A stretch of DNA of 30,960 nucleotides from an uncultured Desulfobacteraceae bacterium. GTDB lineage: Bacteria; Desulfobacterota; DSM-4660; Desulfatiglandales; Desulfatiglandaceae. Within the stretch, counting starts at the first letter, position 1, and every line of letters starts with the position of its first letter. The translations under genes and the position numbers were made by a program. The stretch lies in NCBI GenBank assembly GCA_964620335.1, contig CAZUHR010000001.1, positions 1 through 30,960 on the forward strand, written 5' to 3'. Under the pieces are notes generated by a model. The model saw nothing but the letters and a program-made list of their open reading frames with translations. It did no database searches and had not been told where the DNA came from. This document shows, in pieces, positions 16,932-22,954 of the stretch.

Positions 16932-17717
16932 ATGAATCGATATTATACCTTTAAACATGCATTCATTTTTTCTTGCTTGGCCCTTCTGCTAATATTAGTT
17001 GCAACTCCGGCACAGGCAGATCAACCCATTCCAAAGCCAAGGGGGCTTGTCAATGATTTTGCCAATGTCATTCCATCGGCTTATGAGCAAAAGATTGCTG
17101 TGATCACACAGGAACTTCTTCAAAAAACCGGCGTTCCCGTGGTTGTTGTGACCATGCCTGATATTGGAGATGCGGAGTACAACGATTATGCCAACCGCCT
17201 GTATAGCGCATGGGGAATTGGCAAAAAAGGGGAGGATAAAGGGGTTCTGATCTTTGTTACAATCAAAGAAAGAAAGATGCGTATCGAGACCGGCTACGGC
17301 GTTGAAGGCATCCTGCCTGATGGTCTGGTGGGTGAGATACGGGATAATTATATAACCCCCTATCTGAAACAAAACAAGTTCGGGGAAGGGTTACTCAACG
17401 GGACCATTGCTGTGGCACAGGTCATTGCAAAAGGTTCCGGCGTCGAGCTGACCGGTCAGCCGCCTGTCAGGGTCTCCAAAAAACGAAAGTCCGGATACTC
17501 GTTATTCCCCCTTATATTCATCATTCTGATCTTTATTTTCGCCTCACGACGCCGCGGCGGGTCCTGGCTGTTGTTTCCGCTATTGCTCATGGGTATGGGC
17601 GGAGGAGGCAGGTACGGCAGCGGTGGTTTTGGAGGGAGTTTCGGCGGATTTGGAGGTGGGTTCGGTGGATTTGGAGGTGGCATGAGCGGCGGCGGCGGAG
17701 CCGGAGGAGGATTTTAG
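16932..17717 (+). CDS. TPM (TLP18.3/Psb32/MOLO-1) domain membrane protein with Gly-rich C-terminal tail
   Basis: Signal peptide, VNDFANVI, WGIGKKGEDKGVL, RIETGYGVEGILPD, TM segment, GGFGGFGGGMSGGGGAGGGF end. Start set at MNRYY (16932). Confidence 0.92.
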   Translation: MNRYYTFKHAFIFSCLALLLILVATPAQADQPIPKPRGLVNDFANVIPSAYEQKIAVITQELLQKTGVPVVVVTMPDIGDAEYNDYANRLYSAWGIGKKGEDKGVLIFVTIKERKMRIETGYGVEGILPDGLVGEIRDNYITPYLKQNKFGEGLLNGTIAVAQVIAKGSGVELTGQPPVRVSKKRKSGYSLFPLIFIILIFIFASRRRGGSWLLFPLLLMGMGGGGRYGSGGFGGSFGGFGGGFGGFGGGMSGGGGAGGGF

Positions 17718-17718
17718 T

Positions 17719-18459
17719 ATGGCCAAGAGTCCAAAAGAACCAAAAGATATATTCACGGATATTATCACCGATTACAAAAAAGCATTTGGGGATGACCTCA
17801 TCAGCATAATTATGTATGGAAGCGCCACAGGCAAGGATTACAGGCCCGGAAAGTCTGACATTAATTTCATGATTGTCCTCTCGGAAGAAGGAATCGAACG
17901 TATTGACATGGCATTTGATATTATAAAAAAATGGCAAAAAAGAAATGTGGCGATCCCGCTCTTTCTTACAGAAGCTTATGTTGACACGTCCTTAGATGTT
18001 TTCCCTATCGAATACCTGAATTTTCAGAGAAACTATGCTCTCGTCTTTGGAAAAGATATCCTGAAAGATCTTGCCTTTGACCGGGAATTCATTCGACTCC
18101 AGTGTGAGCGTGAGATCAAGGGCAAACTGCTCATACTCAGACAGGCATTTCTTGAGACATCAGGAAAGGGAAAATCATTAAAAGAGGTAATCGGGAATTC
18201 AATCTCAGCCTTTGTCGCCATTTTCGATGCATTGCTTCATCTGAAAGGCCAAGACTTGCCCAGGACAAAAAGGGAGGTTGTCAAAGCAACGGCCGCGGAA
18301 TTTGATATGGACGCCGCTTTGTTTGAAAAGGTTCTCGACATTAAGGACGAAAAAGTCAAGCCGGGGGATATGGAAATCATGGGCTTGTTCAAGGATTATT
18401 TGAGAGAAGTACGAAAATTGGCAAAACTGGTAGACACCTTAGGAGGACAACATGAGTAA
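17719..18459 (+). CDS. Pol-beta-superfamily nucleotidyltransferase-domain protein with helical C-terminal domain
   Basis: IIMYGSATG...KSDINFMIVL motif; starts 1 bp after the TPM stop; overlaps lemA. Confidence 0.75.
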   Translation: MAKSPKEPKDIFTDIITDYKKAFGDDLISIIMYGSATGKDYRPGKSDINFMIVLSEEGIERIDMAFDIIKKWQKRNVAIPLFLTEAYVDTSLDVFPIEYLNFQRNYALVFGKDILKDLAFDREFIRLQCEREIKGKLLILRQAFLETSGKGKSLKEVIGNSISAFVAIFDALLHLKGQDLPRTKREVVKATAAEFDMDAALFEKVLDIKDEKVKPGDMEIMGLFKDYLREVRKLAKLVDTLGGQHE

Positions 18460-19027
18460 TACACTGAAAACCGTCCTGATTATTGTCGGCATACTCATTT
18501 TGATCATTGTAGTCCCATTCTCATATCTGAAAGGGACATACAACACCCTCGTAACCATGGATGAGGGTGTCAAGGCGGCGTGGGCCCAAGTTGAAAACCA
18601 GCTCCAGCGCCGTTACGACCTGATACCCAACTATGTGGAAACGGTTAAGGGTTATGCAGCCCACGAAAAGGAGGTCTTTTTGAAAGTCACTGAGGCGCGT
18701 TCAAAAGTGGCGGGCGCCAAAAGTATAAATGATAAGATCCAGGCCAATAATCAACTTTCTTCTGCACTTTCCCGCCTTCTTGTAGTTGTAGAACGCTATC
18801 CTGATTTAAAGGCAAACACCAACTTTATCCGCTTGCAGGACGAACTGGCCGGCACTGAAAACCGTATTGCGGTCGAGCGCCGACGTTTTAATGAAACAGT
18901 GAGGATATTCAATACGAAAATACGCAGGTTCCCTACCAATATGATTGCAGGGATGTTTGGATTTGAAAAGGCGGCATTTTTTGAAGTACCCAAGGAACGT
19001 CAGGAGGCCCCCAAGGTAAAATTTTAG
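18452..19027 (+). CDS. lemA: LemA family protein
   Basis: N-terminal TM, YNTLVTMDEGVKAAWAQVENQLQRRYDLIPN, VVERYPDLKANTNF..LQDELAGTENRIAVERRRFN, FPTNMIAGMFGF. Confidence 0.96.
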   Translation: MSNTLKTVLIIVGILILIIVVPFSYLKGTYNTLVTMDEGVKAAWAQVENQLQRRYDLIPNYVETVKGYAAHEKEVFLKVTEARSKVAGAKSINDKIQANNQLSSALSRLLVVVERYPDLKANTNFIRLQDELAGTENRIAVERRRFNETVRIFNTKIRRFPTNMIAGMFGFEKAAFFEVPKERQEAPKVKF

Positions 19028-19053
19028 GGAGAGTAAAAGGAGAAAGATAAACC

Positions 19054-19392
19054 ATGATCCGTGCCAAACTCTGGTTCCGGTGTGCAGCCATGCACGACCC
19101 CACCACACCTATAATTGTGAAACCAGCCGTGATCGGCTGGGAAGCCAAGGAAAGAAATGTAGACCTGACAATCGAAAGGGCATTTAAGGGTGATGAACTT
19201 GTCCTGAGGATGAAAGGATGGGTCACTGTTGATGTGAAAAAGGTGGTTGAAATAGTAAAAAAACATGGTTACCTGAAGGTTCTTGATGAACGCGAACTTG
19301 TTTTAGAAATGGAAACTGAACGCAATTACGAAGAACTGGAAAAAGAACTTCAGGAAAACTTTAAAGATCAGCTAAACCTGGAAAGGATATGA
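19054..19392 (+). CDS. Hypothetical protein (112 aa)
   Basis: RBS ggagaaag upstream, protein-like composition, stop abuts the Smr ATG; no family recognised. Confidence 0.75.
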   Translation: MIRAKLWFRCAAMHDPTTPIIVKPAVIGWEAKERNVDLTIERAFKGDELVLRMKGWVTVDVKKVVEIVKKHGYLKVLDERELVLEMETERNYEELEKELQENFKDQLNLERI

Positions 19393-19674
19393 ATGGAAGA
19401 AAAAGACATAGGCCCGATCCAGATCCCTATCAATGGAATCCTGGATCTGCACATGTTCTCACCTAAAGACGCCTCATCAGTGGTGAAAGAATATATCCGT
19501 TCATGTCTTGAGAAGAAAATTTATGAAATCAGAATCATTCATGGAAAAGGAAAAGGGATCCTCAGGGAGACAGTGCACTCCCTTCTTGAAAGGCATCCCG
19601 ATGTTATTAGCTATAAACTCGACAGCGGTCCCTCAAGTTGGGGGGCAACTCTGGTCTTTCTAAGAAATAAGTGA
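19393..19674 (+). CDS. Stand-alone Smr/MutS2 domain protein
   Basis: LDLHMF, IIHGKGKGILRETVH, SWGATLVFL motifs. Confidence 0.92.
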   Translation: MEEKDIGPIQIPINGILDLHMFSPKDASSVVKEYIRSCLEKKIYEIRIIHGKGKGILRETVHSLLERHPDVISYKLDSGPSSWGATLVFLRNK

Positions 19675-20104: not shown

Positions 20105-21325
20105 TTACTCGTGTGATTTTATCAGTTCTTTTGCTTTAACAAACATTCTCTCCCTGTCAACCGGCTTTACATTCTTTACGATCCATTCCCGAACCTTTAC
20201 TCCAGCAGCAAGTGACTGTTTGTAGCTCATGAAATCAAGTTTTATACCAAGCTCATCTGCTACTTTTGTTGCCAGAACCGGCCATACCTCACCAATATCA
20301 CCTATTACTGGAAGGCTGCCCGGGATCCTGGCAAACCCGGACATCTCCATACGAAAGGGAATCCCCATAAGCTTCGTCTTTGGCAGACCCTTTTCGACTG
20401 CATCAGAAACCATTTTGGATTCTCTCTCCTTAACCCAGGCCTTTTCCAAATTCGGATCAAGATCGATCCGAATGATTTTTTTGTTTGCGAGTGAATAGGT
20501 CCAGCTTCCTTCCCAATCCGCCCATATACCGTGGCCTGTAAAAAGCTCAAACGGCCCGTCGTGGATTTCCTGAGAAAGCGCAAGGGCAGACTCGATAATC
20601 ACATCTGCACTGTCAATAAGCCTTGCGATCCGCTGGCAGCGTTCGGAAATGGACAGCGAATCTCCAACAGCAAGACCTACCTCCCCTCCACCCACCAGCT
20701 GAGGCACGGTAACCAGGACAGGGATGTTCTGCTCTGATCCCGCACCTATCATGGTATAAGGGTCAGCACCGTACCCGGCGATCTGTTCGAAAGGGGCTCC
20801 GCAACGCTTTGCAAGGGCGAGGACCTCGCGGGCTAGCCTTTCCGTGCGAAGCCCAGTGGGATAGGCCATGTTTCCGGCCACTTTGATGATCGTATTTCCT
20901 TTTGCCCTTCTCATCCTGCGGTAAAGAGCGCTGTCAATATGGATTTCGTTTTGATACCTTTCCAAAATTGATCCCGAAATGATACTGACCTCAAATTGCC
21001 CGTCAGAAGGAAGTTTTACCGCCTCAAATCCGAAGGTCTGACCATCAAACCGTTTCACCTTTTCAAGCGTACCCCCCATCTCATGATTGATCACCGCAGA
21101 ACTGGTAGAAACTCCGTCAATGATTCCCTTGCGCATCAATTCCGCAATGAGGGTTGTAACACCTTCATGGATATTCGGACCGCTGCCCACAACAGCAACT
21201 ACTTTACCGCCTCTTTTTTTGGACTCAACTATGTCCTTGACAGCATGGTTCAGTCTGGCCCTGGTCTTAGGGGCCAGGCCTTTGTACATTCTTTCTATTG
21301 CTTTTCTATCAATTGCCACGATCAT
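20105..21325 (-). CDS. Uncharacterised protein with probable deoxyhypusine-synthase-like (DHS-like NAD-binding) fold
   Basis: VAVVGSGPNIHEGVTTLIAELMRKGIIDGVSTSSAVINHE, TMIGAGSEQNIPVLV and C-terminal VIGDIGEVWPVL follow the order of DHS blocks; compared by eye only. Confidence 0.55.
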   Translation of the reverse strand: MIVAIDRKAIERMYKGLAPKTRARLNHAVKDIVESKKRGGKVVAVVGSGPNIHEGVTTLIAELMRKGIIDGVSTSSAVINHEMGGTLEKVKRFDGQTFGFEAVKLPSDGQFEVSIISGSILERYQNEIHIDSALYRRMRRAKGNTIIKVAGNMAYPTGLRTERLAREVLALAKRCGAPFEQIAGYGADPYTMIGAGSEQNIPVLVTVPQLVGGGEVGLAVGDSLSISERCQRIARLIDSADVIIESALALSQEIHDGPFELFTGHGIWADWEGSWTYSLANKKIIRIDLDPNLEKAWVKERESKMVSDAVEKGLPKTKLMGIPFRMEMSGFARIPGSLPVIGDIGEVWPVLATKVADELGIKLDFMSYKQSLAAGVKVREWIVKNVKPVDRERMFVKAKELIKSHE

Positions 21326-21649: not shown

Positions 21650-22954
21650 TCAAATATCAGATAGGAGTTTCTTTATCACCCGCGCATGTTTTTCCGCAGC
21701 TCCTTGGTTTTTCAGGGCCGCCTCCCTAGCCCGTTCACCATACTCACGCACTGCCTCCGGGTGTCCCAAAAACCAGATTGCCTTTTCAGCCAGCATTTCA
21801 GGACCGGATACCGGCATAGCCGCCCGCGCTCCTTCCAGCAATGCCTTTGCATCTAAAAAGTCCTCCATTGAAGGTCCGTAAAACACGACCTTCCCCCAGA
21901 TTGCCGGCTCCAATGGATTCTGTCCACCGAGAGGGACCAGGCTTGCGCCGCAAAACACCAGCGTACCGACGCTGTAAATCTTAAAGAGTTCGCCAAACGT
22001 ATTGATGATAACGACCTTTTCTGTGCGCCTTTCCTTGGCCTCGCCGAGGTCGGTCCGGAGTTGACATTTAAAGCCTCGCCTTTCAATCATGGCTGCAATC
22101 ACCCGCGTTCTTTCTATATGCCTTGGTACAATTATCAAAATCGTCTCCGGAAACTCCTGAAGCATTTTTTCGTACACATCTAAGACTATTTCCTCCTCAC
22201 CCTCACGGGTGCTGCCTGCCACAAAAACCGGCTTTGAAGGCTCAAGATTCAAGATCTGCCTCATTTCCGCTTCCATTAACGGTTCCGCGCTGCTCCCCAA
22301 CAGGTCATATTTGGCATTGCCGTTTATCTCAATCTTCTGAGGGTCAGCGCCCATTGACCTGATTCGAGCGGCATCTTCCTCCAGGATCATGCTGAAGACA
22401 TCAAAGTTTTGCAGGACCTCTCTGAAAAAAGGGCGTAGCTTGAGGTACCCTCCAATAGACCGAACTGATATTCGCCCATTAATCAGTGCGGTTTTTATAC
22501 CCATGCGGTGTGTCTCAAAAAGCCAAGCGGGCCAGATCTCAGTTTCCAGAAAAACCATGGCATCTGGGCGAACCGTAGATAGTGCCTTGCGAATCGAACC
22601 CACAAAATCAATGGGTGCAAAAATCACAGGAACATCTTCCTTAAAGGTCTCCTTAGCCATATCCCTCCCATGTTCTGTAAACATTGAGACTATCACCGAA
22701 CAGCCCGGGATGATCCTTTTTAAAACAGCAATAATGGCGTCGGCCACCTTGACTTCCCCAAGAGAAACAGCATGAATCCAGATCCGGGGAGATCCTGAAA
22801 GTCCCTGAACCGCCTCCTCGGGAATGAACCCCAATCGCTCTTTAAGGTGACGGCCATGCCGTCCTGTTATCCGCGTATAGCCCCAAAACACGGGAAGCAA
22901 AAAAATGAACAGGCCGCTTGTTAAAACCTGATATGGCCGGTACAAAAAACTCAT
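21650..22954 (-). CDS. waaA: 3-deoxy-D-manno-octulosonic acid (Kdo) transferase
   Basis: WIHAVSLGEV, VFLETEIWP, LINGRIS, GNAKYD, VAGSTREGEE, IVPRHIER, NTFGELFKIY, GGQNPLEPA. Confidence 0.96.
   Translation of the reverse strand: MSFLYRPYQVLTSGLFIFLLPVFWGYTRITGRHGRHLKERLGFIPEEAVQGLSGSPRIWIHAVSLGEVKVADAIIAVLKRIIPGCSVIVSMFTEHGRDMAKETFKEDVPVIFAPIDFVGSIRKALSTVRPDAMVFLETEIWPAWLFETHRMGIKTALINGRISVRSIGGYLKLRPFFREVLQNFDVFSMILEEDAARIRSMGADPQKIEINGNAKYDLLGSSAEPLMEAEMRQILNLEPSKPVFVAGSTREGEEEIVLDVYEKMLQEFPETILIIVPRHIERTRVIAAMIERRGFKCQLRTDLGEAKERRTEKVVIINTFGELFKIYSVGTLVFCGASLVPLGGQNPLEPAIWGKVVFYGPSMEDFLDAKALLEGARAAMPVSGPEMLAEKAIWFLGHPEAVREYGERAREAALKNQGAAEKHARVIKKLLSDI

Follow-up and report, generated by a model that had tools for sequence, protein, structure and literature searches.

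A nucleotidyltransferase-like protein linked to TPM and LemA proteins in a three-gene bacterial envelope module

The 30,960-nucleotide stretch of DNA that we analysed, referred to here in its full length as the window, comes from an uncultured Desulfobacteraceae bacterium of salt-marsh sediments and contains three consecutive genes on its forward strand, which encode a YgcG-type TPM membrane protein, a nucleotidyltransferase (NTase)-like protein, and a LemA family protein (Table 1). These genes constitute a conserved three-gene envelope module, in which the widespread TPM-LemA pair has, in several phyla, gained a dedicated cytoplasmic third component. As to how this component acts, the explanation that we tentatively favor, with a confidence somewhat below even, is that the NTase-like protein may bind a nucleotide and serve as an adaptor or regulator; by docking on the glycine tail of the TPM protein, it would control a periplasmic complex of TPM and LemA.

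Linkage of the three genes

The loci that we compared were chosen by the middle protein alone, and their neighbors were annotated by tblastn and jackhmmer. The first set comprises 80 loci from GTDB genomes of Desulfobacteria (52-88% identity); the second comprises 80 metagenome loci retrieved through a distant sub-alignment, which share 34-100% identity with a family member whose own identity to the window protein is ~33%, and these distant loci are ~30-50% identical to each other. For the metagenome scan an alignment built around the DVFPIEFL block (A3) was used in place of a broad one (A2), which proved too diverse. A TPM gene adjoins the NTase-like gene in every assessable locus (75/75 in the GTDB Desulfobacteria and 73/73 among the distant loci, or 148/148 together), and a LemA gene is found within 3 kb in 125 of 127 (80/80 and 45/47, respectively). 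The linkage is essentially obligate and far beyond chance. An earlier reading made from the letters of the window (the sequence-only reading) had allowed that the NTase might only rarely be located beside lemA and TPM genes; the counts decisively exclude this.

The order of the genes differs between lineages. With NT denoting the NTase-like gene, the window's clade has TPM-NT-LemA, the Omnitrophota and most of the distant loci have NT-TPM-LemA, and another group has LemA-TPM-NT-TPM; the flanking genes beyond the module are unrelated between lineages. Start/stop overlaps recur in several phyla: the NT and TPM genes overlap by 4 bp in loci L081, L083 and L087, and in most loci from Desulfobacteria the NT and LemA genes share 8 or 4 bp or have a single base between them. 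One could assume that the middle gene is merely an incidental neighbor, unrelated in function to TPM and LemA. This assumption is refuted by the linkage of 148/148 and 125/127 loci across phyla, the rearranged gene order and the changing flanks, and we assign it next to no probability. Two loci (L096 and L152) retain the NT-TPM pair with no LemA gene within 3 kb, which suggests that NT-TPM is the core pairing and LemA the usual third member. In L096 (4001-6790), the gene that follows the NT-TPM pair is a convergent one for an MscS-like mechanosensitive channel. In five loci (L130, L132, L139, L140 and L141) the LemA-TPM-NT-TPM arrangement has a lipoprotein LemA and two tail-bearing TPM paralogues around the NTase-like gene, and a third open reading frame (ORF) in L140 looks TPM-type as judged from its sequence alone.

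In the window the three genes are tightly packed. The TPM gene ends with a TAG at 17715-17717, one base separates it from the ATG of the middle gene at 17719, and the lemA ATG at 18452 is located within the 3' end of the middle gene (ATGAGTAA), so that the two overlap by 8 bp. The 1-bp gap and the 8-bp overlap had been described in the sequence-only reading, and our reading of the ORFs with their starts and stops agrees with that description. Together with the strong Shine-Dalgarno sites within the upstream genes, this arrangement is classic translational coupling. Simple promoter and terminator scans at the locus gave a signal no higher than background.

In Desulfobacteria the neighborhood, which extends from a molybdopterin oxidoreductase to a Kdo transferase, is syntenic and resembles that of housekeeping genes, and the NTase-like gene is vertically inherited. 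LemA identity across the clade is 74-97%. The NTase-like gene was found in 0 of 72,556 plasmid records; LemA was found in 87 plasmid or chromid records. LemA-TPM operons that do not contain the NTase-like gene are common, annotated examples being LemA-TPM in Parabacteroides and LemA-YgcG-TPM on Pseudomonas pG20.

Topology of the LemA-TPM pair and the glycine tail

The description of the outer genes in the sequence-only reading, namely an exported TPM protein with a transmembrane (TM) helix and a Gly-rich tail and a membrane-anchored LemA, stands in view of the matches to PF04536 (E 1.6e-36) and PF04011 (E 1.9e-65), the signal peptide and the TM segments. The TPM protein, whose start codon is backed by relatives with alignments that begin at residue 1, consists of a signal peptide, the TPM domain, a TM helix, a short second hydrophobic stretch, and the Gly-rich tail, in this order. 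Because the TPM domain is preceded by a cleavable signal peptide, it is predicted to be periplasmic. The LemA domain (aa 43-191) is predicted to be periplasmic as well: in eight partner LemA proteins of relatives a lipobox Cys directly precedes the domain and puts it on the outside of the cytoplasm, and these lipoprotein partners are without any cytoplasmic residue. The NTase-like protein has neither a signal peptide nor a predicted membrane span, and its hydropathy peak of 1.69 falls within a predicted buried helix. The predicted topology, in which LemA and the TPM domain both face the periplasm, was missed in the earlier reading. Since both domains face the periplasm, only the C-terminal tail of the TPM protein would be able to touch the NTase-like protein.

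The last 24 residues of this tail conform to GGFGGFGGGx[S/T]GGGGAGGx[F/W]-COOH in 135 of 146 complete NTase-linked TPM proteins, across phyla. Given this near-invariant end, the tail is, as far as conservation can tell, more than mere low complexity. A Ser or Thr is conserved at position -10, with a Tyr or Ser upstream of it. A related tail (GGGG[AS]..[FW]) is found too in LemA-TPM operons that have no NTase-like gene, including the pG20 protein that is annotated as YgcG family. The presence of the same tail in these operons suggests that it has a function of its own and that the NTase-like protein represents an add-on.

We infer that the tail, with the Arg/Lys-rich stretch after the TM helix, is the sole cytoplasmic element common to all of these systems. 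Three observations support a cytoplasmic location of the tail. First, the positive-inside rule is satisfied in relatives with a single TM helix, which have Arg and Lys residues after it. Second, a homologue from Parabacteroides has a CxxC...CxxC zinc ribbon between TM helix and tail; in this Parabacteroides distasonis TPM protein (L172, 4052-5023) the inserted ribbon reads CPRC...CKSC. Third, in one contig (L111, 692-2386) a single 564-aa ORF comprises a signal peptide, the TPM domain, TM segments, the Gly tail and an NTase-like domain.

Few bacterial envelope proteins of unexplained role are as widespread as LemA and the YgcG-type TPM proteins, and several hints point to upkeep of the membrane or envelope. 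A similarity to NCBIfam Psb32 was found, and TPM proteins act in photosystem II repair. Normal morphology of the minimal cell JCVI-syn3 depends on the LemA-family gene 604 and on its lipoprotein neighbor, gene 605, the LemA-family gene being one of seven genes that are required for it (10.1101/2020.10.07.326892). The formation of the magnetosome membrane requires the LemA-like protein MamQ (PMC3905215), and in a Flavobacterium sppA mutant under membrane stress lemA and a TPM gene were induced (PMC13236525). The literature that we searched gives no established biochemical function for the LemA-TPM pair, and searches for LemA together with TPM or with nucleotidyltransferase returned no paper on the trio. 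Papers on JCVI-syn3 (10.1101/2020.10.07.326892; PMC9483919) treat the LemA-family gene 604 and the Pseudomonas sensor kinase LemA/GacS as equivalent and describe the former as a two-component protein. This is a collision of names, the Pfam LemA family being a single-TM helical-bundle protein.

The NTase-like protein: fold, metal site and possible function

The middle protein of the window gave zero matches in Pfam, even at E<=10. A search among 5.8 billion proteins retrieved 1,370 relatives, of which 0 carry a Pfam annotation and whose names are limited to 'hypothetical' or 'predicted nucleotidyltransferase'. A profile search over 1.84 billion cluster representatives, with clusters formed at the 50% identity level, detected 3,132 clusters at E<=1e-3; of these, 2,076 reach E<=1e-10 and 533 reach E<=1e-30. 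Nearly all members have a length of 235-255 aa. The labeled carriers belong to Desulfobacterota, Omnitrophota, Aureabacteria, KSB1, Cloacimonadota, Nitrospirota and Candidatus Electryonea, with one additional metagenome-assembled genome labeled Dehalococcoidia; the family thus spans at least eight bacterial phyla, mostly uncultivated ones associated with sediment and water. Among the carriers of the triplet is a cultured one, delta proteobacterium NaphS2 (L064). The family and its association with LemA and TPM are undescribed in Pfam, NCBIfam, PADLOC and the searchable literature; the fold itself is known, and the variant of it is new at the level of the family.

An AlphaFold2 model computed with 139 diverse sequences is confident (pLDDT, the predicted local distance difference test, 95.5; pTM, the predicted template modeling score, 0.89). 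It supersedes a poor first model from 32 close homologues (pLDDT 72, with residues 89-120 below 50). The predicted NTase core has the order alpha1-beta1-[GS]-beta2-alpha-beta3, which is the fold of the pol-beta superfamily. In Foldseek searches of the PDB the full-length protein matched ANT(9)/AAD(9), ANT(4'), AadA and HalB (E 3e-6 to 1e-4, TM-score 0.43-0.59), with TM-scores of 0.5-0.59 for the full-length matches of the ANT/kanamycin nucleotidyltransferase (KNTase) type (6sxj, 6nmk, 6fzb and 1kny). MNT antitoxins were matched by the N-terminal half and HEPN toxins by the C-terminal half, and CdnE was matched too. A single-sequence search of the PDB sequences with the NTase-like protein found nothing; the family profile alone found MNT-type proteins (9xbd_E at 8e-6, AF0614, 2rff), AadA and KNTase. 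The family aligned in hhalign to residues 5-87 of the pUB110 KNTase with a probability of 83.5%, and PF01909 was matched by 52 of 139 relatives at E<=0.01 (best 2.3e-8). These Foldseek, profile and PF01909 matches identify the protein as a divergent member of the pol-beta superfamily with an architecture of MNT plus HEPN-like bundle, and the assignment as a pol-beta-type NTase made in the sequence-only reading is borne out by model, fold search and profile alignments.

For the C-terminal helices we also considered the VPS4B MIT domain, an ESCRT-III-binding three-helix bundle, and discarded it as not significant (E 0.08-0.26). The MIT-like profile matches at 18199-18429 (aa 161-237) are probably helical-bundle noise, yet curious beside candidates for membrane remodeling. 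One family member on a short contig (P0179; L091, 39-1139) is a membrane-anchored variant, with ~120 extra N-terminal residues that form four hydrophobic helices before the NTase-like domain.

The best full-length fold matches, ANT(9), ANT(4') and AadA, and a weak match to the NCBIfam ANT_9 model (16.6 bits against a cut-off of 340) could indicate a small-molecule enzyme of the aminoglycoside/lincosamide ANT type that modifies antibiotics, metabolites or precursors of the envelope. If this were the case, then the linkage would reflect a shared pathway and not a complex. However, the catalytic pair is missing, the absence of the gene from all of the plasmid records and its conserved, vertically inherited chromosomal neighborhood do not fit this explanation, and the overlaps with membrane-protein genes as well as the fusion and membrane-anchored variants point to a protein partner. 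We consider this explanation very improbable.

The matches to MNT, HEPN and HalB folds, together with a match to the PADLOC candidate PDC-S09, suggest another alternative, namely a toxin-antitoxin or anti-phage defense system, either as an MNT-HEPN-like fusion or as a Hailong-like NTase with membrane effectors. The PDC-S09 match (5.6e-9) is located on the N-terminal 60 residues, and because it covers only the generic NTase N-terminus we do not take it as evidence for defense. No His is invariant in aa 122-241 across 131 full-length cluster representatives, the set over which residue conservation in the NTase-like protein was counted. Without a conserved His, the helical domain does not contain the HEPN motif Rx4-6H. 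Furthermore, the syntenic, housekeeping-like neighborhood and the 74-97% identity of LemA within the clade are unlike what is found for fast-evolving defense genes, LemA and TPM are widespread envelope proteins outside of defense, and no copies exist among the 72,556 plasmid records, a search that did not include phage genomes. A role in defense is therefore very improbable.

The residues of the putative active site reveal a mixed pattern. The nucleotide-binding motif after beta1 and the Ser that precedes the metal motif are kept at 89-98% (G34 129/131, S35 117/131, S46 126/131). In profile alignments D47 and N49 fall on the SDID of MNT and AadA, and in hhalign D47 falls on D50 and N49 on E52 of KNTase (SDIE). 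Position 47 is D in 95 of the representatives, N in 20 and E in 4, and 119/131 have N49. The Asn that the sequence-only reading had pointed out at the second metal-ligand position is thus real and near-invariant. Not one of the 131 representatives has acidic residues at both positions 47 and 49, and GS...S[D/N]xN can serve as the family signature. E85 after beta3 (PLFLTE) is conserved in the window's clade, but it is E in only 34/131 overall, with P, R or K elsewhere. A family-specific block is far better conserved (S91 120, D93 127, P96 127, E98 127, G111 131 and D113 124, each of 131), and in the helical domain R126, E130 and D239 are near-invariant and K134 and Y227 strongly conserved.

Given that the acid pair is absent, that ~15% of the sequences have Asn at position 47, and that E85 is confined to a clade, canonical two-metal nucleotidyl transfer is unlikely to be the conserved function of the family. 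The pattern fits nucleotide binding without canonical two-metal chemistry, but it does not prove inactivity. The sequence-only reading had suggested an envelope-linked nucleotidylation or signaling system and had asked for the remaining catalytic acids. Membership in the NTase superfamily stands; nucleotidylation is doubtful in view of the missing acid pair (0/131), the Asn at position 47 and the scarcity of E85. The window protein keeps D47 and E85, which across the family are present in 95/131 and 34/131, respectively. A regulatory or signaling role at the envelope, as far as it can be judged from sequence, continues to be plausible.

An alternative explanation is that the protein is an active, non-canonical nucleotidyltransferase, which nucleotidylates or AMPylates the TPM tail, LemA or itself, or which produces a nucleotide or oligonucleotide signal. 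MNT antitoxins that AMPylate a HEPN tyrosine and the control of HalA by HalB in the Hailong system would provide analogies. The homology to MNT and ANT enzymes, the retention of the G-S loop, of S46 and, in 73% of the representatives, of D47, and the conservation of the family-specific acids D93, E98, D113 and E130 all speak for activity, as do the conserved Ser/Thr in the TPM tail and E85 in the window's clade, which was equated with the catalytic base E87 of AadA by position count and not by alignment. HalB, one of the best fold matches, likewise works with a membrane protein (PMC13434031). However, the two beta2 carboxylates occur together in none of the 131 representatives, ~15% have Asn at position 47, and the acid at beta3 is not conserved. 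Operons without the NTase-like gene conserve the tail motif to the same degree, which suggests that the motif is not there for the NTase-like protein, and the synteny within the core genome does not resemble that of Hailong or other defense systems. No NTase-fold enzyme is known to work with a DxN motif, which further counts against this explanation. On balance, we regard an active enzyme as unlikely, although it is the main rival of the explanation that we favor.

A proposal along the same lines is that an enzyme with an Asn-containing, perhaps single-metal site nucleotidylates Ser, Thr or Tyr residues of the tail, or makes a tail-bound signal, and in this way switches a periplasmic LemA-TPM machine for envelope repair. 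We hold this proposal to be rather improbable; if it were true, then tail nucleotidylation would represent a new kind of transmembrane signaling by protein nucleotidylation.

In the explanation that we favor, by comparison, the NTase-like protein would keep the Gly-Ser loop and bind a nucleotide without performing canonical two-metal nucleotidyl transfer. It would dock, on the cytoplasmic side, on the near-invariant glycine tail of the TPM protein, and through this docking the nucleotide or energy state of the cytoplasm would influence how the periplasmic TPM-LemA complex assembles or how active it is. The role of this complex would most likely be membrane or envelope maintenance.

Several points weigh against this explanation. 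The contact between the NTase-like protein and the tail is deduced solely from topology and gene linkage. The second short hydrophobic stretch (aa 212-222) in the window's clade leaves the side of the membrane on which the tail is located somewhat ambiguous, and the fused ORF in L111 comes from a single metagenome contig and may reflect a lost stop codon instead of a natural fusion. With respect to catalysis, Asn is able to ligate Mg2+, and N49 is thus no proof of inactivity; the window protein itself keeps both D47 and E85; and D93, E98 and D113 are so well conserved that they could belong to an alternative active site. E130 and K134, at the start of the helical domain, might correspond to the catalytic E145 and K149 of KNTase; the hhalign alignment reached only residues 1-88.

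The obligately linked partner, though restricted to certain clades, provides the first cytoplasmic handle on the LemA-TPM pair. The linkage points to the invariant glycine tail of the TPM protein as a probable site of cytoplasmic interaction, and it suggests that LemA-TPM may be controlled from inside the cell, possibly by nucleotides. The NTase-like protein offers a soluble, confidently modeled entry point for binding, structural and genetic work. In addition, both annotation and research on pseudoenzymes can profit from the definition of this family, which comprises ~2,000 clusters at 50% identity, has no Pfam coverage and carries a diagnostic S[D/N]xN.

Upstream of the module the window encodes a molybdopterin oxidoreductase, and downstream follow orf112, an Smr gene and, beyond these, genes in convergent orientation, among them one for a Kdo transferase. 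The products of orf112 and the Smr gene are probably encoded on the same transcript as lemA. Both genes are located 3' of lemA in ~32/80 of the loci from Desulfobacteria, where they do not always adjoin it directly, and in 0 of the distant loci. We had considered them as core members and dropped them: they follow lemA only within the Desulfobacteria, and this places them outside the conserved core. A 406-aa ORF on the reverse strand (20105-21325) adjoins the Kdo transferase gene (21650-22954) and has 74-94% identity in related Desulfobacteria; its best match is a sub-threshold one to an ArgZ-like Rossmann fold (E 0.0036), and it is otherwise unannotated.

Table 1. Positions of the module, its parts and the two genes downstream, in coordinates of the window (aa, amino acids)
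Feature	Position	Strand	Basis
YgcG-type TPM membrane protein, 261 aa	16932-17717	+	ORF reading; Pfam TPM_phosphatase PF04536, E 1.6e-36
Signal peptide, aa 1-29 (MNRYYTFKHAFIFSCLALLLILVATPAQA, then DQ; AQA cleavage motif)	16932-17018	+	R/K n-region and hydrophobic core; sequence reading
TPM domain, aa 40-163, predicted periplasmic	17049-17420	+	Pfam match spans profile positions 1-124 of 125
TM helix, aa 189-204 (YSLFPLIFIILIFIFA, then SRRRGGS)	17496-17543	+	Hydropathy maximum 2.17 (19-aa segment from aa 187)
Gly-rich tail, aa 223-261, end GGFGGFGGGMSGGGGAGGGF-COOH, inferred cytoplasmic	17598-17714	+	Conserved motif in NTase-linked relatives
Shine-Dalgarno site GGAGGAGGA for the NTase-like gene	17703-17711	+	Inside the last TPM codons; sequence reading
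NTase-like protein, 246 aa, cytoplasmic	17719-18459	+	ORF reading; ANT/KNTase-like two-domain fold
Pol-beta-type NTase domain, aa 1-115	17719-18063	+	AlphaFold2 secondary structure, hhalign, PF01909 in relatives
Y33-G34-S35-A, hG[GS] nucleotide-binding motif after beta1	17815-17826	+	Conservation of G34 and S35
S46-D47-I-N49, degenerate [DE]x[DE] metal motif on beta2	17854-17865	+	Alignment to NTases
Block S91-x-D93-x-F-P96-x-E98-[FY]-L ... G111-x-D113	17989-18057	+	Family-specific
HEPN-like helical bundle, aa 122-241	18082-18441	+	Foldseek HEPN toxins, probability 1.0, TM-score (target) 0.5-0.65
Shine-Dalgarno site TAGGAGGA for lemA	18440-18447	+	Inside the end of the NTase-like gene; sequence reading
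LemA family protein, 191 aa	18452-19027	+	ORF reading; Pfam PF04011, E 1.9e-65
LemA signal-anchor TM helix, aa 7-26	18470-18529	+	Hydropathy
orf112, 112 aa, without Pfam family	19054-19392	+	Shine-Dalgarno site AAGGAGA at 19037-19043
Stand-alone Smr-domain protein	19393-19674	+	Pfam PF01713, E 2.2e-19

Comparison with known systems

The proposed mode of action would be the same as that of MiD51 and MiD49, which are catalytically inactive membrane adaptors with an NTase fold that have kept nucleotide binding and lost the catalytic carboxylates. These proteins are eukaryotic and belong to the cGAS/Mab21-like branch, and we claim homology to them only at the level of the superfamily.

The aminoglycoside nucleotidyltransferases ANT(9)/AAD(9), AadA and ANT(4')-Ia (KNTase) share with the NTase-like protein a length of ~250 aa and a two-domain architecture, in which a pol-beta NTase domain with a G-S loop is followed by a HEPN-like helical bundle; profile alignment is possible over the N-terminal 50-85 residues. 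However, the identity is only 9-14%, their D..D/E pair is replaced here by [D/N]xN, and an acid like E87 of AadA is unconserved. Unlike these enzymes, the NTase-like gene is located off mobile elements and always together with two envelope proteins, and a small-molecule substrate is not indicated. The MNT-HEPN pairs (MntA-HepT of Shewanella; 7bxo, 5yep, 7ae8) are similar in that the two halves of the protein match MNT and HEPN (probability 1.0) and that the best profile match, 9xbd_E, is an MNT-type protein. They differ in that here both halves are part of one chain, which contains neither Rx4-6H nor DxD and has membrane proteins as partners.

In the Hailong system HalB is an NTase that makes oligo-dA and keeps the membrane channel HalA closed (PMC13434031). 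The fold is comparable (TM-score 0.43-0.57), and in both cases a cytoplasmic protein with an NTase fold is dedicated to a membrane partner. However, Hailong is a two-gene defense system in which HalB, with an active D21/D23 pair, is partnered by an ion channel that bears a DNA-binding crown, whereas the system described here has a degenerate motif, LemA (PF04011) and TPM (PF04536) as partners, and a locus in the core genome.

Closest in composition to the module are the LemA-TPM(YgcG) operons, such as those of Pseudomonas pG20 and Parabacteroides distasonis, which encode the same LemA and TPM proteins with the same signal peptide, TM helix and GGGG[AS]..[FW] tail. We group the LemA-like protein MamQ and gene 604 of JCVI-syn3 with these LemA-TPM systems that do not have the NTase-like gene. 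The window contains the three-component version.

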